64,000 bases of DNA, from the NCBI GenBank assembly GCA_035493895.1, contig DATJHM010000048.1, positions 725 through 64,724 of the forward strand. The letters run 5' to 3'. The DNA is from Ktedonobacteraceae bacterium. GTDB lineage: Bacteria > Chloroflexota > Ktedonobacteria > Ktedonobacterales > Ktedonobacteraceae. This document shows positions 2,378 through 18,690 of this stretch, piece by piece. The position numbers were made by a program, and so were the translations under genes. The notes beneath the pieces were generated by a model. It searched no databases, was not told the DNA's origin, and saw only the letters and a program-made list of their open reading frames with translations. The number at the start of each line of letters is the position of its first letter. Positions within the stretch are counted from its first letter, which is position 1.

Positions 2378-2386
2378 ACTGTCGGT

Positions 2387-2460
2387 GGGGGCGTGGTGCA
2401 GCGTAAGCATTGTACCTCCAACTTGTACAGGACGCCGGGTTGAACTCCTGGCCGCCTCCA
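2387..2460 (+). ncRNA. tRNA-like module 2 of cassette 1 (Ala-type acceptor G3:U70/A73, 9-nt anticodon loop CTCCAACTT)
   Basis: Invariant GGGGGCGTGGTGCAGCG ... CGCCTCCA. T arm GCCGGG-TTGAACT-CCTGGC (6 bp) and anticodon arm TGTAC-CTCCAACTT-GTACA. Confidence 0.55.
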
Positions 2461-2525
2461 CATCCTGTCCTATCCCCTGGTCTGCGTTGAAGCGATTAGT
2501 ATCTGAGAGATAGATAGATATAAGT

Positions 2526-4487: not shown

Positions 4488-4534
4488 CAGCGAATGTGCT
4501 CTCGATTATAGTAATGCCATCGACTTTGTTCGAT
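4484..4534 (+). promoter_or_regulatory. Cassette 2 promoter plus 5' leader hairpin
   Basis: TTGACA (4484-4489, overlapping the stop codon at 4485-4487), a 17-nt spacer, TATAGT (4507-4512) and the hairpin ATCGA-CTTTGT-TCGAT (4519-4534). Confidence 0.65.
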
Positions 4535-4538
4535 CGGT

Positions 4539-4611
4539 GCGGGTGTAGCTCAGATGGTAGAGCATTGGTTGGCTAAACCGAAGATTGCAGGTTCGAGTCC
4601 TGCCCACTCTG
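4539..4611 (+). ncRNA. tRNA-like module 1 of cassette 2 (GCU in anticodon position, short variable loop, no U33)
   Basis: D arm TAGCTCAGATGGTAGAGC, anticodon arm TTGGT-TGGCTAA-ACCGA and T arm GCAGG-TTCGAGT-CCTGC. The acceptor region pairs only as a bulged extended helix (GGTGCGGGTG with CACTC-T-GCGC). Confidence 0.5.
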
Positions 4612-4620
4612 CGCTGTTGT

Positions 4621-4692
4621 GGGGGCGTGGTGCAGCGGCAGCATCGTGCACGCAAAGCACGGGAGGCCGGGTTCGATCCCCGGTCGCCTCCA
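4621..4692 (+). tRNA. tRNA-like module 2 of cassette 2 (Ala-type acceptor, GCA in anticodon position, 7-nt loop ACGCAAA)
   Basis: This is the only copy with a 5-bp anticodon stem (CGTGC/GCACG) and a 7-nt loop. Position 33 is C, not U. Acceptor GGGGGCG/CGCCTCC plus A73, and T arm GCCGGG-TTCGATC-CCCGGT. Confidence 0.55.
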
Positions 4693-4727
4693 CATTCTTC
4701 CTATTCTCCCCCTTTTTTTGCCCCGTT

Positions 4728-4757
4728 TTGGGATAGAGACGTTCGTTTTGGTATGAT
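4728..4757 (+). promoter_or_regulatory. Possible secondary promoter upstream of the kinase gene
   Basis: TTGGGA (4728-4733), an 18-nt spacer and TGG-TATGAT (extended -10, 4749-4757). Confidence 0.3.
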
Positions 4758-4933
4758 AGAGATGGGTCTCAGAGGGACTTTTTCGTCTCTCGCCCGTATA
4801 TCATAAAGATGACCTATCGTTGGCTCGATAGTGTGCACATTCAACCCCGCAACAATACGTATGCTCTTTCCGTTTGTTCGCTGTTGCTGAAAATGGAAAG
4901 AGGAATGGCAAAAAATCTCTGGAGAGGCTGCAT

Positions 4934-6952
4934 ATGGTTGATTACATAGGACGACAGCTTGGCAATTATCGCCTTACCCGTCTTTTAGGCAAAGGCAGTT
5001 TTGCGCAGGTCTATCTTGGGGAGCATATCTATCTTGGTACTCCGGCGGCGATGAAGGTGCTCAGCACGCAGATGGCGGACGATCTGGATGTGTTTCGCAC
5101 AGAAGCTCGTACTATCGCTCGTCTGATTCATCCCAATATTGTGCGCGTGCTGGAATTTGGCGTGGAAGGCACCATTCCGTTTCTGGTGCTGGACTATGCG
5201 CCCAATGGAACGCTTCGTCAGTACTACCCCAAAGGCGTGCCTCTCCCCTTGCCAACGGTGGTCTCCTATGTGAAACAGATCGCTGAGGCATTAGCGTATG
5301 CCCACGGTGAAAAGTTGATTCACCGGGATGTGAAGCCGGAAAATATCCTCCTGGGAAGAAATAACGAGTTGCTTCTGAGCGACTTTGGGATCGCTCTGAT
5401 GGCGCAGACGATGCACGATCAGAATATGCAGAATGTGGCGGGTACGCTGGCCTATATGGCCCCTGAACAAATCCAGGGCAATCCGCGTCAGGCCAGCGAT
5501 CAGTATTCATTGGGCATCATTGTCTATGAGTGGCTGACTGGCGAACGTCCCTTCAATGGCTCGTTCAACGAGATAATCTCGCAGCAGCTCTCTGTTCTCC
5601 CTCGTCCCTTGCGCGCAAAGGTTCCGACGATTGCCCCGGCCGTTGAACAGGTGGTGTTGATGGCCCTGGAGAAGAATCCTGATCGACGCTTTAACAACAT
5701 CCGCGCATTTGCCTTTGCCCTGGAGCTGGCGAGCCAGCTCAATGCGTCTGCCTCTGACGTCGCCGGTAAGCCTGCCGGAGTTGGCGAGATCTCCCCCTCC
5801 TTCAGCAAGCCCCAGGGCGATGAAAGAGCCGCGATTGCGCCGACGATTCTCCCATCTCCAGCGCCTGTATCGCCAGCAAACAATGCCGCGCCTCCGACGA
5901 TCCTTCCACCCCCTGAACTCCTATCGCCAGCGAAAAGTGAAGGCCCTGTTGTGCGCCCTGTCGCACCCCCGCCATCAGTACCCACGCCGCAAACAAAACC
6001 CGCGGGAACGCTCGTCTCCAGTTATCAGGGACATCCGAACGAAGTATGTTCTTTATCGTGGTTCTCCGGTGGCGTGCGCATTGTGTCGGTAAGCAATGAT
6101 AAAAGTGTGCATGTCTGGGATGCTATGACGGGCAAGCAGTTCCAGATCTACCAGGATATCGCTGATGCCGTGGGTGTCATCGCAGGCTCACCTGATGGCT
6201 CACGTATTGCCACTGCCGGATCTGATGCCCAGGTGCGGATCTGGGATTTTGCCACGAATCGTCTGGTAACCACATATCGTGGTCATGTCGGAAGCACCAT
6301 TAACGCAATCGCCTGGTCGCCAACGCAGCAGCAGCTCGCTTCCGCCGCTGCTGACGGCACCGTACACGTCTGGGATGCGACGACGGGGCAGACGCTCACC
6401 ATCTATCGTGGTCATACCGGCAGCGTCAATATGCTGGCGTGGTCGCCCGATGATCCTTCGTCGGCGCGTATCGTTTCCGGTGGCGACGATGCGTCAGTGC
6501 AGACCTGGAATGCCTCCACTGGCAGAAGTATTGCGCTCCACCGCAGCCAGGGGGCGAAGGTCATGAGTGTCGCATGGTCGCCGGAGGTATATCCCATGTC
6601 TCTCCAGACGAGCTACTCGGCAAGCATGCCCACGAAGGTTCCCAATAGTGCCCGGGTCGCGTGCGGGAGAGCAGACGGAACGGTACAGATGTGGGATACC
6701 ACCACAGATCGCGAAGTATTAAGCTACCGCTACAATGCCCCTCTCTCCGTCGTCGCATGGTCGCCGGATGGGAGGCGTTTCGCCTATGCCAGCGAAAACA
6801 AGACAGTAGAGGTGTGGGACACCATGACGAATCTCAAACTGGTAACCTTCTCCCATGCCGCTCCAACCCGCGTCATGGCCTGGTCCCCCGACGGAAAATA
6901 CATTGCCTCTGGCGGTGGCGATGCAACGATACAAGTCTGGGTTGCCCCATAA
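4934..6952 (+). CDS. Ser/Thr protein kinase with C-terminal WD40 beta-propeller
   Basis: Kinase motifs GKGSFAQV, HRDVKPENILL, DFGIA and APE. A Pro-rich linker is followed by at least 7 WD repeats (VHVWDA, VRIWDF, VQTWNA, VQMWDT, VEVWDT, IQVWV). The ATG at 4934 is preceded by GGAGAGG. The ORF track's TTG at 4874 is less likely. Confidence 0.9.
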   Translation: MVDYIGRQLGNYRLTRLLGKGSFAQVYLGEHIYLGTPAAMKVLSTQMADDLDVFRTEARTIARLIHPNIVRVLEFGVEGTIPFLVLDYAPNGTLRQYYPKGVPLPLPTVVSYVKQIAEALAYAHGEKLIHRDVKPENILLGRNNELLLSDFGIALMAQTMHDQNMQNVAGTLAYMAPEQIQGNPRQASDQYSLGIIVYEWLTGERPFNGSFNEIISQQLSVLPRPLRAKVPTIAPAVEQVVLMALEKNPDRRFNNIRAFAFALELASQLNASASDVAGKPAGVGEISPSFSKPQGDERAAIAPTILPSPAPVSPANNAAPPTILPPPELLSPAKSEGPVVRPVAPPPSVPTPQTKPAGTLVSSYQGHPNEVCSLSWFSGGVRIVSVSNDKSVHVWDAMTGKQFQIYQDIADAVGVIAGSPDGSRIATAGSDAQVRIWDFATNRLVTTYRGHVGSTINAIAWSPTQQQLASAAADGTVHVWDATTGQTLTIYRGHTGSVNMLAWSPDDPSSARIVSGGDDASVQTWNASTGRSIALHRSQGAKVMSVAWSPEVYPMSLQTSYSASMPTKVPNSARVACGRADGTVQMWDTTTDREVLSYRYNAPLSVVAWSPDGRRFAYASENKTVEVWDTMTNLKLVTFSHAAPTRVMAWSPDGKYIASGGGDATIQVWVAP

Positions 6953-6962
6953 GCGCTCATCA

Positions 6963-6996
6963 GTAGGGACGCCATGGAGGCACGGAATGGCGTCCG
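6963..6996. repeat. REP-like element, family a (GTAG head plus hairpin GGACGCCAT...ATGGCGTCC)
   Basis: The 36-mer CAGTAGGGACGCCATGGAGGCACGGAATGGCGTCCG is repeated identically at 27910-27945 and 28686-28721. This copy sits 10 nt after the kinase stop and may double as a terminator. Confidence 0.75.
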
Positions 6997-7079
6997 GGTA
7001 GCCAACGAATTCTCAGGCACCGAAGACGAGAGCAGCAACAAAAAACCAGCCGAATCGCAGCCCAGAAGCCCAATGAGCA

Positions 7080-7130
7080 TTGACAATAAATCTAAACTCA
7101 ACTATATTGCATACATCGGATTCGTTCGAT
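7080..7130 (+). promoter_or_regulatory. Cassette 3 promoter plus 5' leader hairpin
   Basis: TTGACA (7080-7085), a 17-nt spacer, TATATT (7103-7108) and the hairpin ATCGGA-TTCG-TTCGAT (7115-7130). Confidence 0.7.
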
Positions 7131-7134
7131 CGGC

Positions 7135-7208
7135 GCAGGTGTAGCGTAGTGGCCTAACGCAGCTGTATATCCCGCAGGAGATCTCAGGTTCGAATCCTGT
7201 CGCCTGTG
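7135..7208 (+). ncRNA. tRNA-like module 1 of cassette 3 (AUC in anticodon position)
   Basis: Acceptor GCAGGTG/CGCCTGT (two G-U pairs), extended to 11 bp with leader and trailer. D arm GCGT-AGTGGCCTA-ACGC, anticodon loop ATATCCC and T arm (T)CAGG-TTCGAAT-CCTG(T). Confidence 0.5.
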
Positions 7209-7217
7209 TCGCATAGT

Positions 7218-7291
7218 GGGGGCGTGGTGCAGCGTCAACACAGTACATCCAATTGGTACATGACGCCGGGTTCAACTCCCGGTCGCCTCCA
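7218..7291 (+). ncRNA. tRNA-like module 2 of cassette 3 (Ala-type acceptor, 9-nt loop ATCCAATTG)
   Basis: Invariant GGGGGCGTGGTGCAGCG ... CGCCTCCA. Anticodon stem GTAC/GTAC and T arm GCCGGG-TTCAACT-CCCGGT. Confidence 0.55.
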
Positions 7292-7344
7292 CAGTTCATC
7301 CATTGCAAAACTCTCCTCATCGCAGCCCAGAAGCACAACAAGCA

Positions 7345-7395
7345 TTGACAATAAATCTAAACTCAACTATATTGCATACATCGGATTCGTCCGAT
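7345..7395 (+). promoter_or_regulatory. Cassette 4 promoter plus 5' leader hairpin
   Basis: TTGACA (7345-7350), a 17-nt spacer, TATATT (7368-7373) and the hairpin ATCGGA-TTCG-TCCGAT (7380-7395). Confidence 0.7.
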
Positions 7396-7399
7396 CAGC

Positions 7400-7472
7400 A
7401 CAGGAGTAGCGTAGATGGTAGCGCGTCTGCTTTGCACGCAGAAGGTCGCAGGTTCGAGTCCTGTCTCTTCGT
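7400..7472 (+). tRNA. tRNA-like module 1 of cassette 4 (Ala-type UGC anticodon arm, non-canonical acceptor)
   Basis: The anticodon arm TCTGC-TTTGCAC-GCAGA is identical to bacterial tRNA-Ala(UGC). D arm GCGT-AGATGGTA-GCGC and T arm GCAGG-TTCGAGT-CCTGT. The acceptor ACAGGAG / CTCTT-C-GT pairs only with a bulged C and continues 4 more bp. Confidence 0.55.
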
Positions 7473-7481
7473 GCTGTCAGT

Positions 7482-7554
7482 GGGGGCGTGGTGCAGCGTG
7501 AGCATCGTGCAGCCAAAAGCACAGGACATCAGGTTCAACTCCTGGTCGCCTCCA
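7482..7554 (+). ncRNA. tRNA-like module 2 of cassette 4 (Ala-type acceptor, 8-nt loop AGCCAAAA)
   Basis: Invariant GGGGGCGTGGTGCAGCG ... CGCCTCCA. Anticodon stem GTGC/GCAC and T arm ATCAGG-TTCAACT-CCTGGT. Confidence 0.55.
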
Positions 7555-7607
7555 CACTTCATCCACCGCAAAACTCCCCTCGTGCCACCTCAGAAGCGCA
7601 ATGAGCA

Positions 7608-7658
7608 TTGACAACGCTTTTCCCCTCAACTATATTACATGCATCGACTTTGTTCGAT
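7608..7658 (+). promoter_or_regulatory. Cassette 5 promoter plus 5' leader hairpin
   Basis: TTGACA (7608-7613), a 17-nt spacer, TATATT (7631-7636) and the hairpin ATCGA-CTTTGT-TCGAT (7643-7658). Confidence 0.7.
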
Positions 7659-7662
7659 CGGC

Positions 7663-7736
7663 GTGGGAGTAGCTCGGGTGCTAGAGCGCCTCCTTGCCAA
7701 GGAGAGAGGTCGCAGGTTCGAGCCCTGCACACTCAA
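7663..7736 (+). tRNA. tRNA-like module 1 of cassette 5 (Gly-type GCC anticodon arm, degenerate acceptor)
   Basis: The anticodon loop TTGCCAA is identical to bacterial tRNA-Gly(GCC). D arm GCTC-GGGTGCTA-GAGC and T arm GCAGG-TTCGAGC-CCTGC. The 5' GTGGGAG pairs with the trailer only through an internal loop. Confidence 0.5.
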
Positions 7737-7745
7737 CGTCGTCGT

Positions 7746-7818
7746 GGGGGCGTGGTGCAGCGAAAGCATAGTACGCTCATTAGTACAGGACATCAGGTTC
7801 AACTCCTGGTCGCCTCCA
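7746..7818 (+). ncRNA. tRNA-like module 2 of cassette 5 (Ala-type acceptor, 8-nt loop GCTCATTA)
   Basis: Invariant GGGGGCGTGGTGCAGCG ... CGCCTCCA. Anticodon stem GTAC/GTAC and T arm ATCAGG-TTCAACT-CCTGGT. Confidence 0.55.
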
Positions 7819-7916
7819 CATTCACCCGAATATCTTATGGCCATTTATCCCCGCATTCTTGCCAGACCGATCTTGCAGAGATTTCAGCCAATAAAAAAAG
7901 AATTGAGTGGACTATC

Positions 7917-8951
7917 ATGACGCCAGAAGCTCTCTCAAGTTTTTTGCATAAGCTCGTCGAACATCGTCTGATGTTCAGTACTATGATCTGGGGCGCGCCG
8001 GGCATCGGCAAATCGAGCATTGTCGCGCAGACTGCGGCTGCCTACGAGATGGAGATGATCGATCTTCGCCTCTCACAACTGGCCCCGACGGATCTGCGCG
8101 GCTTGCCCGTGGCTGACAATGGTGTCTCGCGCTGGTATCCGCCCGAATTTTTGCCGCGTGAAGGCAAGGGCATTCTCTTTCTCGACGAATTGAATCTCGC
8201 TCCTCCCGCGATGCAGGGGATGGCGCAACAGTTGATTCTGGATCGCCGCGTCGGGAACTATACGGTTCCCCGGGATTGGTTTGTCTGGGCCGCAGGCAAT
8301 CGCAAAGAAGATCGTGCCGCCGTGTTCGACATGCCCGCGCCACTCGCCAACCGCTTCATCCATCTCACGGTCGAGGCGCACTTTGACAGCTTCAAATCCT
8401 ACGCCCTCGGACAGCACATTCACGAGCACATCCTGGCGTTTCTCTCTTTCCGTCCCGCATTGCTACATAAGCTCGATCCACAGCAGCCTGCCTGGCCTTC
8501 GCCTCGCTCGTGGATGATTGCCAATCGTCTATACAAAGTGGGCCTGGATATCTCGCATGTGGTCGGCCAGGGCGTTGCCGCAGAGTTTGCCGCTTTTCTC
8601 AAGCTCTATCAACAGTTGCCCAATGTCACTGAGATTTTGCAGGGAAACGGCGACAAGATTGGCTTCCCCGATGAGCCATCGCAGCGTTACGCCCTGACCG
8701 TTGCTCTGACTATGCGCGCCACTTCTCTGCAAGAAAGCTATCTGGCATTTCAATGGATGGCTGCGCATGCCGGACACGAATGGATACAGCTCTTTGCTAC
8801 CGATCTCTTCCGTCAGGCTCGCGCACGCAACGAACTGGGACGTCTGGCGACACTGGTGCAGCGCGATAAACGCTTACAGCAAATGTTCATTGAATACATG
8901 AAGTTGCTGGAGGAGCCCGACGCGTTGGAGGAAGCCGATGAGCAAGAATGA
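7917..8951 (+). CDS. MoxR-like AAA+ ATPase (AAA_5 type)
   Basis: Walker A GAPGIGKS, Walker B ILFLDELN, and AAGNRKEDRAAVFDMPAPLANRF. The likely start is the ATG at 7917 (MTPEALSS...). The ORF-track start at 7608 reads through cassette 5 and is rejected. Confidence 0.85.
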   Translation: MTPEALSSFLHKLVEHRLMFSTMIWGAPGIGKSSIVAQTAAAYEMEMIDLRLSQLAPTDLRGLPVADNGVSRWYPPEFLPREGKGILFLDELNLAPPAMQGMAQQLILDRRVGNYTVPRDWFVWAAGNRKEDRAAVFDMPAPLANRFIHLTVEAHFDSFKSYALGQHIHEHILAFLSFRPALLHKLDPQQPAWPSPRSWMIANRLYKVGLDISHVVGQGVAAEFAAFLKLYQQLPNVTEILQGNGDKIGFPDEPSQRYALTVALTMRATSLQESYLAFQWMAAHAGHEWIQLFATDLFRQARARNELGRLATLVQRDKRLQQMFIEYMKLLEEPDALEEADEQE

Positions 8952-10068
8952 TGCTTTTCAGCGCCAGATTTCCGCCGCGATCATTCAGTTGCGCCTGCAT
9001 TCGCCGTTCTTTGCAACGCTCGCGCTGTTCGCCAGGATTATTCCCACGCAAAACTATCCCACGGCGGCAACCGATGGACGCGATGTCTTTATCAATCCAG
9101 ATTTCTGGCGCGACCTGACGACCGCTGAGCGCCTGGGCTTGCTCGCTCACGAAGTACTGCACGCCGCGCTCCTCCACGTGCCGCGCCTGGGCCGACGCCA
9201 TCCCTTAACCTGGAATATTGCAGCCGATATTGTGGTCAATGGCATCATTCTTGCTCAGGATGGTTTTGCGCTGCCGAAGGGGCATCTGCGCTATGCGCAG
9301 CTTGAACAACTGAGTGTGGAGGAAATTTATCATCAGATCCAGGCAAATGCCGACGTACGCAAGCTTTTGCTTCCTCTGTTTGCCGATCTGCTGTTGCCCA
9401 CAGAAGGACTCTCTCCCGACCAGTATGCCGAACTTGAGCAGCACTGGAGGCAGGCCTTACGCCAGGCCGAAACGCTGGTCGAAGTGCTGGGACATGGCAC
9501 GCTGCCAGCAGGCTTGCGGCGCGAAATGACCCATCTCAGCCCCTCTCAACTGGATTGGCGAGCCTATCTCTGGCGCTTCCTGGTGCAAACTCCGACCGAT
9601 TTTGAGGGCTTCGATCGTCGCTTTGTGGGTCAGGGACTCTATCTGGACGCGCTCGCGGGGGAGAAACTGCGCGTCTTTGTGGCGGTCGATACCAGCGGCT
9701 CTATTGGCAGTAAAGAGATTGCGCAGTTTCTCGGCGAGGTGCAGGCCATCCTGGGTGCCTATCCACATCTGGAGGCCATCCTCTATTATGCAGATGCTGC
9801 CTGCTATGGTCCCTATGAGCTGACCCCTAACTCAGAGCTTCCCCCTCCGGTGGGTGGCGGCGGCACCGATTTTCGTCCGTTCTTTGCGGCCGTTGAGACG
9901 ACCCTCGATGCTTCGTCTCATGGCATCTGCATCTATCTGACCGATGGCTATGGTACCTTTCCCAGCGTACCACCCTCATTGCCCGTGCTCTGGGTCCTCT
10001 CTCCCGGCGGGATAAGCATCGAATATGTGCCATTTGGGGAAGCGGTACGCCTGATTCCCGACGTGTGA
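8938..10068 (+). CDS. vWA-like domain protein with N-terminal HExxH metallopeptidase-like domain (DUF2201-type partner of MoxR ATPases)
   Basis: HEVLH zinc-binding motif and a MIDAS-like VAVDTSGSI. The start overlaps the ATPase stop by 14 nt, which suggests an operon. Confidence 0.8.
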   Translation: MSKNDAFQRQISAAIIQLRLHSPFFATLALFARIIPTQNYPTAATDGRDVFINPDFWRDLTTAERLGLLAHEVLHAALLHVPRLGRRHPLTWNIAADIVVNGIILAQDGFALPKGHLRYAQLEQLSVEEIYHQIQANADVRKLLLPLFADLLLPTEGLSPDQYAELEQHWRQALRQAETLVEVLGHGTLPAGLRREMTHLSPSQLDWRAYLWRFLVQTPTDFEGFDRRFVGQGLYLDALAGEKLRVFVAVDTSGSIGSKEIAQFLGEVQAILGAYPHLEAILYYADAACYGPYELTPNSELPPPVGGGGTDFRPFFAAVETTLDASSHGICIYLTDGYGTFPSVPPSLPVLWVLSPGGISIEYVPFGEAVRLIPDV

Positions 10069-10101
10069 CCTGCGCGCCTCGCTTTCCCGATCTGTTTTGT
10101 A

Positions 10102-10431
10102 TTAGCGGTTCCGTTCGCTACGTACGAAGACTGTCGTCTCGATAGAGAGAAAGAGCACGAACAGAATCCCGATGACCAGCAGATTGATGAACGGATTGAG
10201 CAGGACAACCTGAGCGTATTCTGATCTGCCCATATAGAAGATACTACGGACCAGATCGACGGTGTAGCGCATCGGGACAAGCTTCGAGAGGATGTCCAGA
10301 TACCAGGGGAGATTGCGGACCGGCAGAAAGACGTCTGCCAGAAAGAATCGCGGGATGACAGTGAAGTACCCCACGGCTGAAGTTATCAAAATCCATCTAT
10401 TGAAAATCTTGATGTGCTCTTGCTCCTGCAA
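10102..10431 (-). pseudogene. ABC-2 type transporter permease, C-terminal fragment only
   Basis: The 109-aa ORF matches only the last TM segments of ABC-2 permeases (LPVRNLPWYLDILSKLVPMRYTVDLVRSIF). The upstream frame is broken by a stop, and the expected N-terminal part is occupied by repeat family X. Confidence 0.5.
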
Positions 10432-10576
10432 GTGTAGCCGGAGAAAGGATGAGAACCGGCATCATCCCCGCAGATGAGTTACCAGGAACCACATCGGATA
10501 GTAAAAAACGAAAAGATAGACAATGACGTTTGACTAAACAATCCAAATCCCTCTATGGATTGAAAGCATGTACGTC

Positions 10577-10969
10577 CACAAATTCATGCCGAAGAACCAA
10601 TTTCGCCCGAACCCTTCAGAAATTTCATTACCTGTCGAATATCTATAACAGAAGAGGAAAAATCCCTCCCACCCCGTTCTCACAACAACGATGTCGCCTG
10701 AAGAGAGACAGTGCAGCATCCAATAATGGGGGAAAGTGTAGGACTGGCGTAGGGGGCGTGTAGGCGTGAGATTCCCATCACATCGGCATTTGTGTAGGTT
10801 ATGTAGCTTTTTAGAAAAAAATCTCGTAGCGTAAAAAAATCTCGTAGCGCGTCACCAAAAGGATCCCAATTCCCTATCATCTCACCTCTCACCATCTCCT
10901 GTAGCTCTGGTGTCGAGGCGTGTAGGGTCAAGATCGCGATCACATCCACCCTGGTGTAGGATGTGTAGC
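10577..10969 (+). repeat. Repeat family X, copy A (roughly 400-bp non-coding element with multiple TGTAG motifs)
   Basis: Shares about 80-85% identity by eye with 28240-28542 (same orientation) and 53627-54067 (inverted). It contains a 17-nt tandem repeat, AAAAAAATCTCGTAGCG x2, at 10815-10849. Confidence 0.75.
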
Positions 10970-11052
10970 CCTGTAACAACTTGTCATAACGAATCCACCC
11001 ATTGGCCCGGAGAACCCATACCGGCATCGACACGCGTCGCGCCCCCGCAGAG

Positions 11053-11098
11053 GTAGGGATCGGGCTTTATGCCGATCCGCGAGCCCCCCGGCCATCGC
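11053..11098. repeat. REP-like element, family b (GTAGGGATCGGGCTTTATGCCGATCC) plus a CCCCCGGCCATC box
   Basis: A GTAG head is followed by an imperfect palindrome. The same architecture recurs at 16600-17120. Confidence 0.65.
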
Positions 11099-11205
11099 GC
11101 GCGACAAATCTGTTGAAAACGAAACAAAAATCTATATTTCACTATATTTTCTAAAACTAACTGCTAATACGTTTGATACAGAAATAGGTACATAGTATTA
11201 GTTTC

Positions 11206-11234
11206 TGTACAAAAATGAATAATATCCCTATAAT
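11206..11234 (+). promoter_or_regulatory. Possible promoter of the 1714-aa gene, inside an AT-rich leader
   Basis: TGTACA (11206-11211), a 17-nt spacer and TATAAT (11229-11234). GGAGG at 11271-11275 lies 9 nt before the ATG. Confidence 0.35.
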
Positions 11235-11284
11235 AAGTGGATATTGCCCCTGTCTATCAGTAACCCATCAGGAGGACGTCCTTT

Positions 11285-14200
11285 ATGTTATCGTGCTGGA
11301 ACTGCCACGCGGTATTACCAGAGGGAGCAAAATTTTGTGGACGCTGTGGAAATAAACAAGACACGGCAGCGTCTGTTCTACCATCTTCTCTTCTTACCGT
11401 TCCCCACTCTACTCAACTTGTAGCAACGGACCTTGTGCATCATGATCAACCTGTCGCAACGGACCTGCATCATGATCACTCTGCCGCTCCCACTTTTACC
11501 ATCTACTCGGCCGTTTTGCCGATCAAAACCTGGCTTGCAGAACATCGCGCGACCATTGCCGCAAAACTTTTGACGGTCCTTGTGTATGTCAATACCAGGC
11601 GCAATGAAAACAGAGAGCTTTTTGAAACCAATAGCGGAAGAGAAACTCCTCCGCTCGAAGATCGTTCCTGGGACAAAGTTGCCTTTATTGCCGGGCTGTA
11701 TGCTCGCTTTATGTGGCGCTATGAGTTGAACGCCGAACAGAAACGCAATCTCTGGGATGCCTTGTGCTGGTCCGTGCTCTATGAACGAGCTTTGCGCCCG
11801 AAGATGGCTGATGCCCGCTTTGCCGAACTGGTTGGCTTTTTTAATGGCTGCGCCGGGGATAGCGAATTCTTCGCCTATATGCTCCTGAGCATGCCGCTCT
11901 TACTTGAATATGTTGATACTTCCAATATCCACAAACTCCTGACCGCCAGTGAACGTCTGGGCAACTCATCGGATGTCGTGCATCTGCGCGCATTACTTCA
12001 CCAACGCCTCGTTATGCCTGCCGATGTGGATCTGGAGTCAACTCAATTGACGGTGCTGGCCGATCAGCCCGGCCCGAGACGTGAGTGGGCGCGTATCATT
12101 CTGGCTATTGAACATCTCTGGCAGTTTTTAGACAAAAAACGCGAGAGCAGTAATCAGCGCGCGCTGACCTTTGCCCGCGAAAATCCCATGGACTCGACCA
12201 CTCCTTCGCAACTGGCAACGCTGGGCGGGGTGATTTGTCGCAATGTCGTCTTTCGCTATGCTCACAATAGTACGTTACCTGGCAGCATGCTGACTGCTGA
12301 ACAATTGGCGGACGCCATCGCGCTGGCGGAATACTCGATACGCTATAGTTCAGGTGATTATATTGGTAAGGCCGAATATTATTATCTGCTCTTGAGCAGC
12401 TTACGCGATCTGCGGACACATGTACTCTCGGCCGATGTGCTCGTGAGCGCGCTGAAACGCCAGTTCGCACCCGAGGGATTGGCCCGAATATCGGAATTCT
12501 CCTGGTCCGATCTCCTCGGCATCGTGACGCGCTACCTGAGCGAGTGTCGTCTGGCGGAAACCATTGATGTGGTGGAGGTGGAGTCCTGGATACGCGCTCT
12601 GGCTGATCTTGCTCCTCAGTTTCAACTGGAGGCGCGCAAGGTGTTTGTGAGTGAGGTGCGCCAGCATGGCGTGCGCGACAGTATGGCTTTGCGTGCTTTG
12701 CAGGGCGAGTCATTGGAAATGGTCAGTGAAACACATGACAGGGGGCCACTGGCGTTTCTCGGACAGGAGCGCTACAAAGAGCTGCTGACCTGTATTCGTA
12801 CCTCTCGTCTGGATCGTCTGGGCGAAATTCTGCGTGAGGCGCGCCCGAAACTTTTCGCCGAACTGAGCCGTCTATTGACCGATCAGAAGTTTGCGGAGAT
12901 TCTCCCGCCCCGACGCTCATTGCGCATACGTGGTCGCAATGCCAATGCTCTCGATCGCTTTCAGGAGGCAAAAACGCTTATTCAGAGCGAGAATGTCGCC
13001 GAGCAACAGGAGGGACTTGCTCTCTTCGAGCGAGCTCAGGCTGATACTGCCCGCGAATATCAGCCCGTTGCACGCGAATGGCGTCTGTTCGCGATTGCCT
13101 GCGTCCGGGCGCGCTATCAGGCGGTCCCGCTGTGGGAAGAGGATCGCTGCAAGGGCGTTGCGTCCTGGGAGGAGATCTGGAATCTGGCCGTCTTCTATGT
13201 TCATGTTGGCAAGATCGATCAGGCGTTGGAATTGCTGGTGCCCGGCGTTGAGCGGCAGCGAGCCCCTTTCTCGCATCTGCGTTTTGCCCTCTATTGCAGC
13301 GTGCAGATTCTCGGACAGGGGTCACATTCGCAACACGAGAGCATCGAAGCCGCCGAAACGTTTCTTATGGAGCATCTGAAACAGTATCCCTTGCCGGAAT
13401 GCTATCTGGCATGGTCTTTATTGGTCAGTGAACGCGAGAGTGTTGATCGAGCGCAAAGTACAAACAATATGATGAAGCAACTGACGATCCTGACCAAATT
13501 TAACGAGTTGCTTGACCATCCCATCCTTATCCTGAAGCCAGAGGAGTCGGTCAGCGATTCTGCCCTGGAGACATTTGAAAAAGAACTCCGTCGCCTCGAT
13601 CTGGACGATGTCTGGCGTTTCTGGATTCACGACTATGCCCAACGCAACCGCTATAAATTCAGTGCCTGGCAGGCGCTGAGCGATGCGTACGAGCGCGCGG
13701 GCGAAAGTACCGGAGCTGAAAAGTCCCTGAAACATGTTGCAGATACGCAGCTTGATATGTATCTGAAGCAGCGCGAGAAAAGTAGTGCTGTTGTCTCTAA
13801 TCTGCTGCATCTGCGCAATCATCTATGTAAGTTGTTCGATTTTTATCAACGTCAGGGCCGTTTATTGGACGATGATGTCTTTGCCCGCTTTAAGCACTAT
13901 CGCACGACTGTCCCCGAACTATGGCATGAACGGGAGAGTGCGAATACGAAGTTGATCAAGCAGACACGTCCTCTGCTGGAGAAACTGGGGCGAACAGGCA
14001 GCACAAACGAGTCTTCTGCAACTCAAGCCCCACAGAAAGCCTGGTATGCGCTCGCTTCGGAGCTTACGACTGTCCAGGAAATCGCCACTCTGAAGAGCTT
14101 GCAGGCGCGCATACATACCCATGTCCATCTTCTGACGGATGCGCAAAAGCAGGGTCAGGACGATGTTGCGGGCGTCCTATCGCTGCTGGATGATCTCTGC

Positions 14201-16429
14201 TCACTCGAGGGTACCCGCTGGCGTCACGATGAGCTGTCGCGCGAGGTGGAGCGTTTGAATAGCGCCATCCAGGAGGTTGGTGCTCAAATAGAACAGGAAG
14301 CCGCTCTCAAGCCACTGAAAGCGTTGCTCGAAACATTTCGTCGCGTCTTCAAACGTTTTAGCGAAATGCAGCATCTGGCACCGGAGCTGGAGATCGAGCC
14401 AACTCCGCTTGGAGGTGGCCTGCCTGATGATATGCCCGAGACTGCGCTGGTGATCCGCATTCATAATCCCGGCCCTGGCAAAGTCAGCGATCTGCGCATC
14501 TCCTGTACTGAGAAGGGATTGACCGCCTCGCAGGGCGAAGTAACGCTGAACTGTCTGGAGCAGGGAGAGAATGCTGTCGTCGCTATCCCTGTGCTTGTGC
14601 AGGTGCCCGCAGAGGCAATCCAGCTCGATTTTCAGATTACGTTGACCTACCAATGGGGGATTATCAAGGATATGAGCTGTATCTGTCCGCTCAAGGTTCG
14701 GCTCTTCAATTTCCACGATTTCTTACGCCAGCATGATATTCACGATTATGAGCTGCCCAATCCGTACATTTTCAATCGTCCCATCGACTTTTCTGAGGAT
14801 GATCACCGTCTCTTCCAGGGACGTGAGAGCGAGCTTGCGCTGATCCGCACGATCTTTTTCAAGCGGCAGATGACCGGCGCTCCCCTCTATTTCCACGGGA
14901 TTCGCAGGGTGGGAAAGACGTCGCTACTCAATCGCATTGTGCTGGAATTGCGGAAAGAGGCGTTCTTTCCCTGCGTTGTCGATCTCAAAAGCGTGAAAGC
15001 CGCGCAGCACCCGTTAGAGGTCACGATCAACAGTTTTACACAGAGCATCCTGCGCGATGCGCAAAGTCAGGGCCTGGATGTAGAGGGTCTGGAGTCTGTG
15101 GGAGCGAGCCATCCAGATCCGCTTCTCGGCGTTGAGCGTTTCTTCGCGGCGCTGCGCGAACGGACCGGTCGACTCCAGCTTGTGCTGCTCCTGGACGAGT
15201 TCTATCTCCTCGTTGCCGAGCGCACGACGCCTTTGCTGGACCTGTTGCGCCATATTCATCAGAGTGGGATGATTCTCTTTATTATGTCCGGTTGGATGCG
15301 CCCGGAACCGCTACGCCGCGCCTGCCCGGAGACGCAACTCTTCCCGCTCACAGAAAGGCCGCTCGATTTTCTCTCAGTTCACGCTGTTCGTCAGGTACTG
15401 CTTGCGCCGGTTGCGGGCTATGGCATTGAAATTCCTGATCATACCGTGCAGCGTGTCTTCTGGCAGACTGCTGGCAATCCTTACCACGTTGCGCGCATGG
15501 CCTATGAAGGGGTGGATCGGCTCAATGCCCAGCATCGCACCGTGCTGGCTCCACAGGATATCGATGCGATCGCCGAGCGTCTGGCCAGCGAGCCCGCCAA
15601 CTTCACCTCATCGTTGTTCAGCCCCTTAATTCTCAGTCCGGAGGAACAGCGTGAGGCGATCCGCTTTGCCAGAGGTTTAAACGGGAAGCGTGACTATCTC
15701 GACTTTGCGGAAGCCTCGCGCACATTTGATCTGGACATTATTCGTGGGTTGGAAGAGAAATATATTCTTGAGTACCTGCGTGATGAGAAGGGAGAGCGTC
15801 TACGTGTGCGCAGCAAGATGCTGGCGACGTTCCTGGGGAGTCGTATGACCGAGCCCATCGTCCTGCCGCCGCCGCCATCCCATGAGAAACGCGTGGGATT
15901 ATTCGTCGATTACGAAAATCTCCGCCCCCTCATGCCCGCCAGCATGACGGCCAGGGAGGTCGGCGAGATGCTCGTCACCTATGCTGCTCGTTTTGGCGAA
16001 GTCGTCTGTTGTTGGGCCTGTGCTGATCCGCGCAACATTCGCGATCTCGCCAGCGTCAAACTCGAACTGGAGCAGGTCGGTTTCCAGCTTCAGACGCCGA
16101 GCGGTGAGCCTCAGACCGGGCAATCCAGCAAGAACCTGTCGGACTTCGTGCTCATCGAACGTATCATCGACGAAAGCACGCACACCGATCCCAGCATCTA
16201 TATCATCGTCAGTGGAGACAAAGATTACTACGAACGCATCAACACGCTTCTGAACGGAGGTTGTACCGTGCGTCTCTGCGCCTCCATCAGCGCTGGCAAT
16301 CTGGCCGAGAAGTATCATACCCTGGAGACAGAACGTCATCAGTATCAACTCGCCGAAGGCAAACCAGAGCGCGATTTCTTTATCGACGATCTGGATGCCG
16401 TCTTGAAACTCAAAGTGAACAACCCGTAG
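11285..16429 (+). CDS. 1714-aa multidomain protein: N-terminal zinc ribbon, long helical region, STAND/ORC-like P-loop ATPase, C-terminal NYN (LabA-like) ribonuclease domain
   Basis: CWNCHAVLPEGAKFCGRCG (zinc ribbon). FQGRESEL...YFHGIRRVGKTSLLNRI (Walker A, about 14896-14925) and LVLLLDEF (Walker B). The NYN motifs are VGLFVDYENL (about 15893) and IIVSGDKDYYERI (about 16204). Strong RBS and ATG start. Confidence 0.85.
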   Translation: MLSCWNCHAVLPEGAKFCGRCGNKQDTAASVLPSSLLTVPHSTQLVATDLVHHDQPVATDLHHDHSAAPTFTIYSAVLPIKTWLAEHRATIAAKLLTVLVYVNTRRNENRELFETNSGRETPPLEDRSWDKVAFIAGLYARFMWRYELNAEQKRNLWDALCWSVLYERALRPKMADARFAELVGFFNGCAGDSEFFAYMLLSMPLLLEYVDTSNIHKLLTASERLGNSSDVVHLRALLHQRLVMPADVDLESTQLTVLADQPGPRREWARIILAIEHLWQFLDKKRESSNQRALTFARENPMDSTTPSQLATLGGVICRNVVFRYAHNSTLPGSMLTAEQLADAIALAEYSIRYSSGDYIGKAEYYYLLLSSLRDLRTHVLSADVLVSALKRQFAPEGLARISEFSWSDLLGIVTRYLSECRLAETIDVVEVESWIRALADLAPQFQLEARKVFVSEVRQHGVRDSMALRALQGESLEMVSETHDRGPLAFLGQERYKELLTCIRTSRLDRLGEILREARPKLFAELSRLLTDQKFAEILPPRRSLRIRGRNANALDRFQEAKTLIQSENVAEQQEGLALFERAQADTAREYQPVAREWRLFAIACVRARYQAVPLWEEDRCKGVASWEEIWNLAVFYVHVGKIDQALELLVPGVERQRAPFSHLRFALYCSVQILGQGSHSQHESIEAAETFLMEHLKQYPLPECYLAWSLLVSERESVDRAQSTNNMMKQLTILTKFNELLDHPILILKPEESVSDSALETFEKELRRLDLDDVWRFWIHDYAQRNRYKFSAWQALSDAYERAGESTGAEKSLKHVADTQLDMYLKQREKSSAVVSNLLHLRNHLCKLFDFYQRQGRLLDDDVFARFKHYRTTVPELWHERESANTKLIKQTRPLLEKLGRTGSTNESSATQAPQKAWYALASELTTVQEIATLKSLQARIHTHVHLLTDAQKQGQDDVAGVLSLLDDLCSLEGTRWRHDELSREVERLNSAIQEVGAQIEQEAALKPLKALLETFRRVFKRFSEMQHLAPELEIEPTPLGGGLPDDMPETALVIRIHNPGPGKVSDLRISCTEKGLTASQGEVTLNCLEQGENAVVAIPVLVQVPAEAIQLDFQITLTYQWGIIKDMSCICPLKVRLFNFHDFLRQHDIHDYELPNPYIFNRPIDFSEDDHRLFQGRESELALIRTIFFKRQMTGAPLYFHGIRRVGKTSLLNRIVLELRKEAFFPCVVDLKSVKAAQHPLEVTINSFTQSILRDAQSQGLDVEGLESVGASHPDPLLGVERFFAALRERTGRLQLVLLLDEFYLLVAERTTPLLDLLRHIHQSGMILFIMSGWMRPEPLRRACPETQLFPLTERPLDFLSVHAVRQVLLAPVAGYGIEIPDHTVQRVFWQTAGNPYHVARMAYEGVDRLNAQHRTVLAPQDIDAIAERLASEPANFTSSLFSPLILSPEEQREAIRFARGLNGKRDYLDFAEASRTFDLDIIRGLEEKYILEYLRDEKGERLRVRSKMLATFLGSRMTEPIVLPPPPSHEKRVGLFVDYENLRPLMPASMTAREVGEMLVTYAARFGEVVCCWACADPRNIRDLASVKLELEQVGFQLQTPSGEPQTGQSSKNLSDFVLIERIIDESTHTDPSIYIIVSGDKDYYERINTLLNGGCTVRLCASISAGNLAEKYHTLETERHQYQLAEGKPERDFFIDDLDAVLKLKVNNP

Positions 16430-16500
16430 AGTCGCCGCTCGCCTGCCCTGTCACGGAAAGAAGGTGACGCTCCCATCATTTCTGACCACCATCGTGCCCA

Positions 16501-17165
16501 GTAGGGACGCCATGTCGAATGGCGTCCGCCCCCACCGGCCATCTCGCCCTTCTGCACACATCGGGATCGCGCTTCCTGCCTCTCCAATACGTATCAACCT
16601 GAGGGGCAAGATGGCCGGTGGGGGGGCGCGGACCGGCATAAAGCCCGGTCCCCTACCTCAGCCCTTCTTCGAGGAGTGGGAGCATCGGTGCCCCCTTGCC
16701 AAAGACGATACGACCCGCAAAACAGAACAGGTAGGGACCGGGCTTTATGCCGGTCCAATACGCATCAACCTAAGAATAGATGAGCCATTGGAGATGGCCG
16801 GTGGGGCACGCGGGCAGGAACAAACCCATTGTGGGCCCCGGCCACGACGTTGGTGACAGTAGAGGCACAGTTCCGCTGCGGCTCCACCGTGCCTCTACTG
16901 ATCCATTGACGAGGTGAGGGAGTGCCTGCGAACTCGCTCGATTTCCCTGGCTCCGCCGCAGGAACGCGCTAGGATCGGTGCCCTTCGCATCCAACCACGA
17001 GCGCGAAAAAGCTGGTCGCTCTCCCTTTGGCCCTCTCGCATACCTCATCCTTTCTTAGGTTGATGCGTATTGACCGGGCTTTATGCCGGTCCGCGGCCCC
17101 CACCGGCCATCTCCAATAACTCACCCTTTCTCTGGTTGATGCGTATTGGGCATAGACCCGCCGCG
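16501..17165. repeat. Mosaic of REP/BIME-like elements (families a, b, d plus GCCCCCACCGGCCATCTC boxes and CAATACGCATCAACC boxes) in both orientations
   Basis: Elements include GTAGGGACGCCATGTCGAATGGCGTCC (16501), GGACCGGCATAAAGCCCGGTCCCCTAC (about 16627), GTAGGGACCGGGCTTTATGCCGGTCC (about 16733), GTAGAGGCAC...GTGCCTCTAC (about 16861-16903), and the GGTTGATGCGTATTG / CAATACGCATCAACC boxes. Confidence 0.75.
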
Positions 17166-17265: not shown

Positions 17266-18690
17266 CTACCGCACCTCAACCTCACTTAACTCTGCCTTCG
17301 CCGTTACCGTTTTGTGTGCAAACACAAAACGCGCAAGCAGCCAGTACAGGACACCGCCGACAATGAAGCCGGTAAAAACGCTCATATCAGAGTTGTGAAA
17401 GAGCTTTGCGAGCGGCCCCACAATCAAAGTAGAGTTTAACCAGAGCGCAGAAGCAATCATACCCACAATCTGCGCAATGATCCCGGCTGGATTGATGCCG
17501 CCTTGATACCAGTAAGGGCCTCCCAAGCGCGCAAATAATCCTGGAACATCATAGATATTGTGGCGCATCCAGGCGTCCATCAGATAGATCGCACACCAGG
17601 GAGCCAGGAAAATAATGAGCAACGAAAGGAATTCGCCATACAGCGTATTAAAGCTCGAAGAGAAAATCGCAATCGCCGCCAGGACCGTACAAATCACCAT
17701 ATCGACAGTCGTGGCCTGCCAGCGTTTAAGTGGTAGCCCCAGCGCCTGCAAGGTCAAACCGGAAGAGTACAGATCAATGGCATTCACCGCCAGCATGTTC
17801 ACGCAGAGCAGCAGTAAATAGGGGACAAGAAACCAGCCAGCCAGCGCTGATGGTAGCCCGGAGATAGGATCAGAGGCCCCCGGCAGGCGTGTTGCAACGG
17901 CCGCTCCCAGGATTTCGAGCAGTACAGCAGGGATCATTCCTCCAAGAGAAGAAGCCCAGATGACTGGTCCGGAGCGCACCGTTTTCGGCAGATAGCGCGA
18001 GTAATCGCTGCCCGTATTCGCCCAGGAGATACCGCCTCCCGAGACCATCAGGGCAAATCCTACCGTCATCGCCGCAAAAGAACCGCTTTGTCCTCCCGAG
18101 AGCTGCACTTTGCCTGCAACCATCACGGCTACAATGATGAAGAACAGCAGGAAAATCCAGGCCAGCACCTTTTGAAATGCCATGATTGCCGCATGCCCTA
18201 CGGTCGGGAGATAGATCTGTACCGCCGCAACAACGAGGATCACCACAATCTTGAACCACGCTGCATCGCTAAACGTTATGCCAACCGCATGCGTCAGCGT
18301 GAGAATGGCAATCACGGCCAGCGCTAAACCAGAACCTTCAAAACCAATCAGTGTGCACCAGTTAAAAAAGGAGAGCAGGCGTCCACCATTAGGACCGAAT
18401 GAGGCGCGGTTAATGGCAAAGGTCGCAGTCCCCGTGCGTGGTCCCTGAATGCTGGTCAACCCCAGCAAAAAGAAAGCCAGGTTTCCTACAAGAATAACTC
18501 CCAGGCTCTGATAGAAAGATAATCCCAGGGAAATAAGCAACGCACCATTGATAATATAAAATACATTCGCATTGGTTCCTAGCCAGAGGAAAAAGAGGTC
18601 GCGTGGGCGTCCCCGCCGCTCATTTTCTGGTACGACTTCGATGCCGCGCTGTTCAATCGTACCGCTCTGCGCTTCTTGTTCTGTCGCCAT
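17266..18690 (-). CDS. purine-cytosine permease (NCS1 family transporter)
   Basis: 474 aa with about 12 TM helices. The N-terminus GIEVVPENERRGRPRDLFFLWLGTNANV is typical of CodB-like NCS1 permeases. Confidence 0.85.
   Translation of the reverse strand: MATEQEAQSGTIEQRGIEVVPENERRGRPRDLFFLWLGTNANVFYIINGALLISLGLSFYQSLGVILVGNLAFFLLGLTSIQGPRTGTATFAINRASFGPNGGRLLSFFNWCTLIGFEGSGLALAVIAILTLTHAVGITFSDAAWFKIVVILVVAAVQIYLPTVGHAAIMAFQKVLAWIFLLFFIIVAVMVAGKVQLSGGQSGSFAAMTVGFALMVSGGGISWANTGSDYSRYLPKTVRSGPVIWASSLGGMIPAVLLEILGAAVATRLPGASDPISGLPSALAGWFLVPYLLLLCVNMLAVNAIDLYSSGLTLQALGLPLKRWQATTVDMVICTVLAAIAIFSSSFNTLYGEFLSLLIIFLAPWCAIYLMDAWMRHNIYDVPGLFARLGGPYWYQGGINPAGIIAQIVGMIASALWLNSTLIVGPLAKLFHNSDMSVFTGFIVGGVLYWLLARFVFAHKTVTAKAELSEVEVR

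Follow-up and report, generated by a model that had tools for sequence, protein, structure and literature searches.

Repeat X and its three copies in the window

The window, which is the whole 64-kb stretch of the Ktedonobacteraceae contig DATJHM010000048.1 analyzed here, contains a repeat that we designate X, first pointed out in a preliminary description of the sequence. The three copies reported there (A, B and C) do exist: when a profile was built from the alignment of the three stretches and run against the 64 kb with nhmmer, only three matches were returned, with E-values far beyond chance, namely 10543-11038 on the plus strand (copy A, 4e-155), 54094-53560 on the minus strand (copy B, 1.6e-156) and 28201-28624 on the plus strand (copy C, 5e-96). 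In three blocks, copy A matches copy B with 85-88% identity, and reading and alignment recovered the shared sequence blocks named at the outset.

The limits of the copies needed revision. Copy A, first placed at 10577-10969, in fact extends from 10567 to ~11100, as the members are homologous through a tail with a GTAG-tagged hairpin at 11053-11078; by blastn its homology reaches 11100 with locus L025 and 11089 with locus L022. The start of copy B had been set at 54067, but the TTCATGCC found there (54067-54060) is the tail of a different repeat, an R3 unit, and the same ..GGTTCACTTCATGC.. end is seen on an R3-type unit inserted in locus L026; the family homology of copy B runs from ~53990 to ~53520 on the minus strand. 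Copy C (28230-28547), described as partial, is not truncated and represents a separate C-type subfamily of nine members, in which 54-nt modules replace the spacer and the second module.

The layout of X is modular: a head is followed by one to four GTAG modules, a spacer, a second module and a tail, with a length of 0.3-0.6 kb or longer, and the number of modules varies among members, which fall into subfamilies (A-type, C-type and others). The head is ~170-220 nt long, with CCCTTCAGAAATCTCAC..GCCGAATAT as its best-kept block. Its start is either of a long form, CATGAACTCCAACAAATTCATG, which is a small inverted repeat, or of a short form, CCCTTCAGAAAT; the long 5' end carries a CATGAA..TTCATG hairpin. 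Also located in the head are a purine/pyrimidine hairpin that depends on the subfamily (GAGG..CCTC, GGAGGAG..CTCCCTTCC or GAAGGCG..CGCTCTTC) and the stem of the preliminary description, ACGATGTCGCC..GCAACATCG. The ~54-nt module, of which each element has one to four, consists of TGTAGGnnnTGTAG(G/C)nnnTGTAGC, then TTTTTnnAAAAAA, then cnTGGTAGCGCGTCA, and the GTAG array motif of X can be written as TGTAGGNNNTGTAGC. The spacer, GTCACCAAAAAGATCC..CTCAC, is present in A-type and long C-type members, and in the second module TGTAGC..TGTAGG precedes a GATC mini-palindrome and CACATCCACC..TGTAGGATGTGTAGC. The tail, ACTTTTACAATTTTT..CACCCATTCGCCTGG..CGGCATCGATTCC, often terminates in (A/C)AGGTAGGG and then a GC-rich hairpin, and this hairpin unit is tandemly repeated in loci L004, L005, L025 and L043.

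In copy A, on the plus strand, the A-type head was assigned to 10567-10736 by alignments, blastn extents, pair counts and folds; it comprises the long-form 5' end (CATGTACGTCCACAAATTCATG), the best-conserved core block CCCTTCAGAAATTTCATTACCTGTCGAATAT (10611-10643), the small GAGG/CCTC hairpin (10654-10668) and the stem, the arms of which are at 10690-10697 and 10713-10720. GTAG module 1 (10737-10808) has three TGTAGG and a TGTAGC around GAGATTCCCATCACATCGGCAT, and its portion 10755-10807 is repeated with 74% identity at 10917-10969. Next are a tandem pair of 18-nt units (AAAAAAATCTCGTAGCGY; 10815-10850) and the spacer GTCACCAAAAGGATCC..CTCACCATCTCC (10851-10899), which is common to copy B and the A-type and absent in the C-type. 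GTAG module 2 (10900-10969) has TGTAGC, TGTAGG, the palindrome GATCGCGATC and then TGTAGGATGTGTAGC. The tail (10970-11100), common to many members, has as its final element a unit resembling a repetitive extragenic palindrome (REP), in which the GTAG tag at 11053-11056 is followed by the hairpin GGATCGG..CCGATCC up to 11078.

Copy C, on the same strand, begins with CATAAACTCC directly after a second kind of repeat, designated Y (28176-28229). Its C-type head (28230-28452) has the stem at 28357-28364 and 28381-28388, and the segment 28453-28547 holds two identical 36-nt GTAG cores (GCATCAGTGTAGGTGATGTAGGATGTGTAGCATTTT), 54 nt apart, with the linker AGGAAAAAGCGTGGTAGC. A second Y repeat and a ~40-nt fragment of an X head, TCCAACAAATTCACG..GCGAATCTCC, are part of the mosaic at 28548-28640. 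The entire copy is enclosed by a 776-nt tandem duplication (27884-28991), made of Y and R2 repeats, in which 27884-28220 recurs at 28660-28991 with 88-90% identity in three aligned blocks and a short unaligned stretch between the second and third. The two minus-strand open reading frames (ORFs) that lie across this duplication, 27867-28250 and 28607-29107, are probably spurious.

Copy B, on the minus strand, has a short-form head (53842-53990) with homology from near AGATTTCGCATCAACTCTTCAGAAATC and the stem at 53886-53879 and 53862-53855. Its modules occupy 53627-53841, i.e., GTAG module 1 (53841-53767), the spacer (53766-53697) and GTAG module 2 (53696-53627); the two 75-nt GTAG modules are 72% identical and 145 nt apart. 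The tail (53520-53626) includes a decayed REP-like unit (ACAGGTAGGCGGTGCTGTATGCC), and its homology with loci L024 and L025 extends down to 53559.

The GTAG motif is strongly asymmetric between strands: in 45 element segments, GTAG[GC] was counted 466 times on the element strand versus 20 times on the opposite strand, and the commonest spacing between motifs was 9 nt (141 cases). The 64 kb contain 63 occurrences of TGTAG[GC], compared with 40 +/- 6 in shuffled sequence; 24 of the 63 are inside the three copies, and the other 39 match the expectation.

No terminal inverted repeats (TIRs) were found in copies A, B and C. The 5' ends of X are of the long or the short form and the 3' ends of several kinds, and the sequences abutting the 5' ends (AAAG, AGGT, TATC, AGCC, CACC and others) have nothing in common and no direct-repeat partner. 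Thus, when the copy boundaries were inspected for target-site duplications (TSDs), a check proposed at the outset, none was found, the ends being ragged and modular, with no empty site for a strict test. These results bear on the view of X as a classical MITE (miniature inverted-repeat transposable element), that is, an internally deleted insertion sequence with TIRs and TSDs, moved by a DDE transposase. Known MITEs, such as Correia/CREE, ERIC and RUP, possess TIRs and TSDs. X is similar to them in being non-autonomous, non-coding and intergenic, in its high copy number and size of 0.3-0.6 kb, and in forming subfamilies, but it has neither TIR nor TSD, its ends are modular and of long and short forms, and no transposase gene recurs in the vicinity of the copies. 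This origin is therefore very unlikely and already largely refuted. As the copies lack both TIRs and a common 5' junction sequence, X is not a MITE of the TIR/TSD type, although the broader suggestion of a non-autonomous mobile element is still plausible.

Family members, host species and genomic setting

A search for further family members had been recommended, and it was run as a pattern scan of metagenomes, which added 42 loci. The pattern covered 29 nt of the head (CTTCAGAAATYTCAY-N7-CGAATAT), and its 42 matches on metagenome contigs all came from sample Ga0310811; including the three copies of the window, the X family therefore has at least 45 copies at unrelated intergenic sites, and nhmmer detected additional partial X modules in the Ga0310811 loci. 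In viral contigs the same pattern was absent, and a scan of 185,579 species-representative genomes was equally empty, so that with this pattern the family was not seen beyond the one species; X had no match in a plasmid collection searched by blastn in distant mode. Neither the X profile nor TGTAG clusters were present at the homoserine dehydrogenase loci of 80 relatives and the DUF2201 loci of three relatives, where little DNA was sampled. The median head identity among the copies was 77% (range 56-97%); copy A grouped with eight members, copy C with eight others, and copy B stood alone at ~80%. The block CCCTTCAGAA(A/G)T(C/T)TCACCATCTGCCGA was kept even in copies that were found without the exact head pattern, and its conservation is thus not solely an artefact of the search.

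The possibility that X is common to two organisms was considered and ruled out, as the Ga0310811 loci belong to the window's own species. Locus L247, from sample 3300060805, is 99.94% identical over 6.5 kb to locus L030 of Ga0310811, which shows that the species of the window is present in Ga0310811; at 7906-16562, the window itself is 99.7% identical to a JGI metagenome contig of sample 3300060805 (L001). For the homoserine dehydrogenase encoded in the window, identity is 83% to the enzyme of a 'Chloroflexia' metagenome-assembled genome (MAG) and 65-77% to its counterparts in many Ktedonobacteraceae, Dictyobacter and Thermogemmatispora genomes, and the DUF2201 protein is 90% identical to a protein of a Ktedonobacteraceae MAG. 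The window is bacterial chromosomal DNA, and the host, a soil bacterium, is an uncultured member of the Ktedonobacteraceae (Chloroflexota).

Comparison of strains offered a view of the dynamics of X. Over 8.66 kb, the window and L001 differ by 10 single-nucleotide polymorphisms (SNPs) and one indel, which corresponds to one of the two tandem 18-nt units (AAAAAAATCTCGTAGCGT) in copy A; in other words, a copy-number polymorphism separates strains that are 99.7% identical. Since most A-type members have two such units, the L001 strain has probably lost one. Between L247 and L030 there are four SNPs, none of which is in X. A divergence of 0.1-0.3% between strains, set against the median head identity of 77%, suggests that the copies are mostly old, because divergence among the copies far exceeds that between the strains.

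The statement that the copies lie in intergenic repeat clusters was borne out, and all are intergenic by crude ORF calls. By the same calls, the flanking genes are convergent in 10 cases, co-directional in 8 and 6, and divergent in 5, copy A being located between divergent genes. No recurrent neighbor gene or transposase was found near the copies, and the neighbors are functionally unrelated except for kinase/WD40 families that are abundant in the genome. No empty site for copy A was found in relatives that have a 79-90% identical DUF2201 protein, where synteny stops immediately beyond DUF2201. In L124, L125 and a contig of sample 3300041966 (DUF2201 identity 79-83%), the segment corresponding to 10102-16429 of the window, which comprises a 109-aa ORF, copy A and a 1714-aa gene, is missing after DUF2201. 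The product of the 1714-aa gene has zinc-ribbon, ATPase (STAND-like) and NYN domains and is NLR-like, and the break in synteny after DUF2201 points to a lineage-specific insertion of this gene.

The position of copy A between divergent genes would also suit a regulatory role, in which a host protein (nucleoid-associated, regulatory, or linked to methylation or GATC) would bind the TGTAG(G/C) arrays as double-stranded DNA and X would have been domesticated as a set of cis sites. A motif of 6-7 nt, repeated in tandem at a regular 9-nt spacing, fits such sites, as do the GATC mini-palindromes of the larger modules (GATCGCGATC in copy A, GGATCAAGATCC in many members) and the A/T tracts (TTTTTnnAAAAAA) between the cores. 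Nonetheless, the position and orientation of X relative to gene starts are inconsistent, with many copies between convergent genes, and the flanking genes have no functional relationship; the number of modules is variable and unstable between strains, and a promoter-like site outside X (TGTACA-17-TATAAT, 11206-11234) serves the 1714-aa gene on the downstream side of copy A. We therefore regard a role as protein-binding sites as decidedly improbable.

Several other features of the window may be recorded here. Large LRV-repeat and kinase-WD40 genes are interspersed with a tRNA and tRNA-like array at 2235-7834, which has ~264-nt units at 6993, 7258 and 7521 and related units at 2235 and 4469; six tRNAs, including an odd Asp(atc), were called by ARAGORN and a partly different set of six by Rfam, and further GTGGGGGCGTGGTGCAGCG..CCTCCACA tRNA-like copies were called by only one of the two or by neither. 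The cumulative GC skew falls from 0 to -0.30, with its minimum at ~18000-20000, and then rises to +0.78; this could be noise or a replication-related switch, and the X copies are oriented without regard to it. Two adjacent, diverged paralogues of MurJ (lipid II flippase) are encoded at 40528-42498 and 42692-45076, the second with a long N-terminal extension. Lastly, the product of 59919-62195 (758 aa) has an eCIS core domain (PF13699) and may be part of an extracellular contractile injection system or a toxin-like cargo.

Coding potential and RNA structure

The preliminary description regarded X as non-coding and the ORFs computed across its copies as not genuine, and both views held. No ORF is conserved among the members: the open frames differ from one member to another and are separated by frameshifts, and the antisense translations could be aligned only with frameshifts. 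The most open frame over 375 nt, which is antisense, is free of stops in only 7 of 39 members. Variability of the alignment columns taken modulo 3 was 0.124, 0.175 and 0.152, i.e., there is no period-3 pattern of substitution. A profile of the antisense ORF found only three 'hypothetical proteins' among 5.8 billion sequences, and two of them were traced to samples that carry the species of the window. These JGI entries (P0121, P0122 and P0123; L247, 3001-3456) are antisense translations of X and thus annotation artefacts. One of the original arguments was inexact, namely that the indels are not in multiples of three: the duplication in copy A is of exactly 18 nt (10815-10832 and 10833-10850), a multiple of three, and so is no argument by itself against coding. 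A Shine-Dalgarno reading of the AGGAGG in C-type heads was also rejected, as no start codon follows it and the ATGGGG ORFs (4-8 codons) vary between copies.

The 9-nt period of the arrays equals three codons, which raises the question of whether X is decayed coding sequence, e.g., the remnant of a collagen-like or Pro/Thr-rich repeat gene. The pattern TGTAGG-N3-TGTAGS-N3-TGTAGC indeed has more than 120 matches in viral contigs (L127-L246), where it is frequent because it is the antisense of the Gly-Pro-Thr or Gly-Ala-Thr repeats of phage collagen-like proteins, and the open antisense frame of the seven members may be counted in favor of the same idea. These viral loci were rejected as relatives of X, with which they show no homology by nhmmer. 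In X itself, the spacer triplets are TTA, ATG, ATA and TGA, read in antisense as TAA, CAT, TAT and TCA, which specify stop, His, Tyr and Ser where Gly would be needed; X therefore has no Gly-X-Y pattern. Taken with the discordant frames, the lack of period-3 substitution and the three hypothetical proteins that were the only matches of the antisense profile, this makes a coding ancestry barely credible, and it is already largely refuted. It is to be noted that the collagen-like phage repeats are a trap for motif searches that rely on TGTAG periodicity.

An RNA function was considered in connection with the internal stem, which had been described as keeping its pairing by compensatory changes. 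Part of that description stands, since the stem is a conserved inverted repeat with 87.7% of the cells paired in the alignment; the other part does not, as the sixth pair is mismatched and only one pair is compensatory. Specifically, the stem GATGTCGC/GCAGCATC of copy A has a C.A mismatch at the sixth pair, which was not mentioned originally, and 25 of the 32 copies have C.A or C.C there; the fifth pair alternates between U-A and U.G. The change of G-U to A-U noted in copy C is correct. The 'double compensatory change' of copy B, in contrast, concerns a single pair, G-C to A-U, and leaves a C.C mismatch and a wobble. Among the aligned copies, copy B alone has a two-sided change in this stem; locus L015, found later, has the A-U pair again and also a C-G at the fifth pair. 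The stem thus does seem to be kept, on the evidence of one or two events.

These observations could be explained if X were a family of small RNA (sRNA) genes, producing either a structured non-coding RNA or a protein 'sponge' like CsrB/RsmY with UGUAG(G/C) or AGGA motifs. The motif is strictly strand-specific, as a signal on one strand would be, and ~43% of the GTAGG motifs precede an A, which creates AGGA. Most copies have two small stems, and for both stems together 84% of the cells are paired, against 38-55% in controls in which the arms were slid; T.G wobble pairs are frequent, and both copy B and L015 carry the compensatory replacement of G-C by A-U. The tests of structure, however, gave a different answer. 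The covariation score of both stems was 0.117, against a shuffle mean of 0.123, and 399 of 500 shuffles reached it; four pairs showed two-sided change, a partial positive. The loss of all covariation in a larger alignment had been named as grounds for abandoning the structural reading, and apart from one pair this is what was found. RNAalifold on 36 heads gave a consensus of -3.0 kcal/mol that did not contain the stem (local RNAalifold with ribosum scoring inflated the energies on both strands alike and was not used). The mean minimum free energy (MFE) z-scores of the heads were -0.42 for the plus and -0.26 for the minus strand, no better than shuffled sequence, and those of the three window hairpins were -0.75, -1.85 and +0.12. 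In the Rfam scan of the window at the gathering score only tRNAs were found, and the Rfam check of the three X loci, which had been advised, gave no match even at E<=1.

Signals for transcription were likewise not found at copy A. No sigma-70-type promoter or intrinsic terminator was detected in 10400-11300, inside or adjoining copy A, save the promoter of the downstream gene. The head sequence TTCAGA-N16/17-GAATAT/AATATC was considered as a promoter and rejected, since its second hexamer reaches only three matches out of six and the promoter scan did not call it. Genes for CsrB/RsmY-type sponge RNAs number one or a few per genome and have promoters and terminators, and the RNAs display their motifs in hairpin loops. 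X is like them in having many short, purine-rich, GGA-containing motifs on one strand, and unlike them in its 45 or more copies, in having no promoter or terminator detected at copy A and in the lack of a hairpin context for the motifs; the divergence of the copies and the varying number of modules are atypical of a gene for a trans-acting sRNA, and the orientation relative to neighboring genes is mixed. Overall, the structured-RNA reading is unsupported by Rfam, RNAalifold, MFE z-scores, covariation, gene orientation and the promoter scan, and an sRNA gene family is distinctly unlikely.

REP-like hairpin units and the nature of X

A REP is a palindrome of 20-50 nt that follows a GTAG, is often clustered, and can be tandemly reiterated together with its flanking segments; the RAYT (REP-associated tyrosine transposase) or TnpA(REP) enzyme recognizes and cleaves REP single-stranded DNA, with GTAG guiding both recognition and the choice of cleavage site (PMC3733652, PMC8266576, PMC6006769). 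GTAG-tagged REPs have been reported in Chloroflexi, in Thermomicrobium roseum (PMC3733652). Units of this description exist in the window. The R1 unit, GTAGGGATCGGGCTTTATGCCGATCC, is found at 11053 (the tail of copy A, 11053-11078), 16731 and 17067, and inverted at 16620. The R2 unit, GTAGGGACGCCATGG..ATGGCGTCC, is found at 6961, 27910 (27910-27947) and 28686 (28686-28723), and its DNA fold has a z-score of -2.5. The R3 unit, GTAGTGGCACGG..CTGTGCC, occurs at 46204 (46204-46272) and inverted at 46349 and 54107; one inverted R3 doublet (46204-46417) has 69-nt arms that are 91% complementary. A 'double-foot' GTAG..CTAC palindrome, GTAGAGGCAC..GTGCCTCTAC, lies at ~16859-16901. The regions occupied by such units are 11053-11078, 16499-17150, 27910-27947, 28686-28723, 46204-46530 and 54107-54150, and they represent at least three families. 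From their sequences, R1-R3 fit the published definition of REPs and of their higher-order forms, the bacterial interspersed mosaic elements (BIMEs) and REPINs, which amounts to a predicted REP/BIME-like system in a Ktedonobacteraceae genome. X keeps company with these units: every copy in the window abuts GTAG plus GC-hairpin units in the same orientation, and ~15 of 36 members are followed downstream by a GGTAGG(R)(R) head oriented as they are, the reverse being seen in three.

The modular mosaic layout of X beside GTAG-tagged hairpins points to a repeat of the REP/BIME-like or BOX-like kind, and we consider that X is probably a high-copy, non-coding, modular interspersed repeat, a BIME/BOX-like mosaic, of one uncultured Ktedonobacteraceae species. 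Like REPs and BIMEs, X is extragenic, non-coding and abundant, and forms mosaic clusters with tandem reiteration of flanking segments (PMC3733652, PMC8266576, PMC6006769). GTAG is its dominant, strand-specific motif, and true GTAG plus hairpin units lie within or next to it. X departs from REPs in its size (0.3-0.6 kb or longer, against 20-50 nt), in lacking a palindrome after most of its GTAG motifs, and in its unique head of ~170-220 nt, which has no REP counterpart.

The BOX element of Streptococcus pneumoniae has the structure boxA-(boxB)n-boxC, with ~100 copies, no ORF and an internal module of ~45-54 nt; we know of no function identified as mobilizing it. Its fixed end modules and the variable number (1-4 in X) of an internal ~54-nt module are matched by X, an architectural analogy without sequence relationship. 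X differs in sequence and phylum, and by its 9-nt GTAG periodicity and REP-like tails; moreover, BOX RNA is predicted to fold stably, whereas the X head folds no better than shuffles. A third comparison is with PATEs (palindrome-associated transposable elements), which are derived from IS200/IS605 and have no TIR or TSD and carry sub-terminal hairpins and single-strand signals. X shares with them the lack of TIR and TSD, the strand-specific signals, and a hairpin near either end (CATGAA..TTCATG at the long 5' end, GC-rich near the 3' end); unlike PATEs, it has no conserved 5' junction tetranucleotide, no related tnpA/tnpB was seen, and it contains internal tandem arrays.

With regard to mechanism, the GTAG arrays of such a mosaic repeat would gain and lose units through replication slippage or unequal recombination, and dispersal of X would need a function supplied in trans. 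The GTAG motif, the asymmetry reminiscent of single-strand signals and the absence of TIRs and TSDs make a RAYT/TnpA(REP)-type HUH Y1 enzyme acting on single-stranded DNA the best candidate for the disperser. GTAG as the recognition or guide tetranucleotide of a RAYT would explain the strand asymmetry. That such an enzyme spreads X is put forward tentatively, as a possibility of rather low probability. Any cellular role, such as effects on transcript 3' ends or protein binding, would be secondary. A more specific proposal is that X and R1-R3 form an undescribed REP/BIME-type system of Ktedonobacteria, in which GTAG, the recognition tetranucleotide of a RAYT-like HUH enzyme, would have been amplified into strand-specific, palindrome-free 9-nt arrays serving the enzyme as multi-site landing pads, decoys or substrates for cleavage and strand transfer, with the head as a second recognition element; as a whole, this seems unlikely.

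Several observations weigh against placing X with the REP/BIME mosaics. First, X has no REP-defining palindrome of 20-50 nt, its GTAG motifs mostly preceding mini-palindromes of 4-5 bp (in the larger modules) or none (where spaced by 9 nt) and true hairpins being confined to the tail unit at 11053-11078 and the neighboring R1-R3 units, and its units are co-oriented head to tail, as opposed to the inverted pairs of BIMEs and REPINs, which the R3 and R1 families do form; because it lacks both the palindrome after the tag and the inverted pairing, X was not filed as a REP. Second, no empty site that would attest mobility was recovered, and the relatives with a 79-83% identical flanking protein have other neighbors. 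Third, no RAYT/Y1 gene was found in ~0.95 Mb by tblastn with E. coli TnpA(REP) (query checked against PDB 4ER8; nothing at E<1), although this is a small part of a genome of probably >8 Mb, and the result is therefore uninformative either way. Finally, even copies that came to light without the search pattern retain the head block CCCTTCAGAAATCTCAC..GCCGA, and the stem holds seven of eight pairs across subfamilies, with one compensatory change; it is therefore possible that the head has a function that depends on its sequence or structure.

Mosaic interspersed repeats as such are well known, and palindrome-free 9-nt GTAG arrays on a conserved head are a new architecture. Genomes of Ktedonobacteria are very large and rich in repeats, and the literature searched yielded no account of the repeats between their genes. 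In practical terms, X explains part of the intergenic clutter of the window and is a source of spurious ORF calls, as in the three public 'hypothetical proteins'. Since many copies lie at contig ends, it probably breaks metagenome assemblies, and it provides length markers at the strain level, such as the 18-nt unit. If X were merely a neutral mosaic repeat, the finding would be an ordinary one. If, on the other hand, the GTAG arrays are RAYT substrates, they would constitute a new class of substrate, show how BIME-like mosaics arise, and extend the REP/RAYT association to a new phylum-level lineage and to a new repeat architecture.

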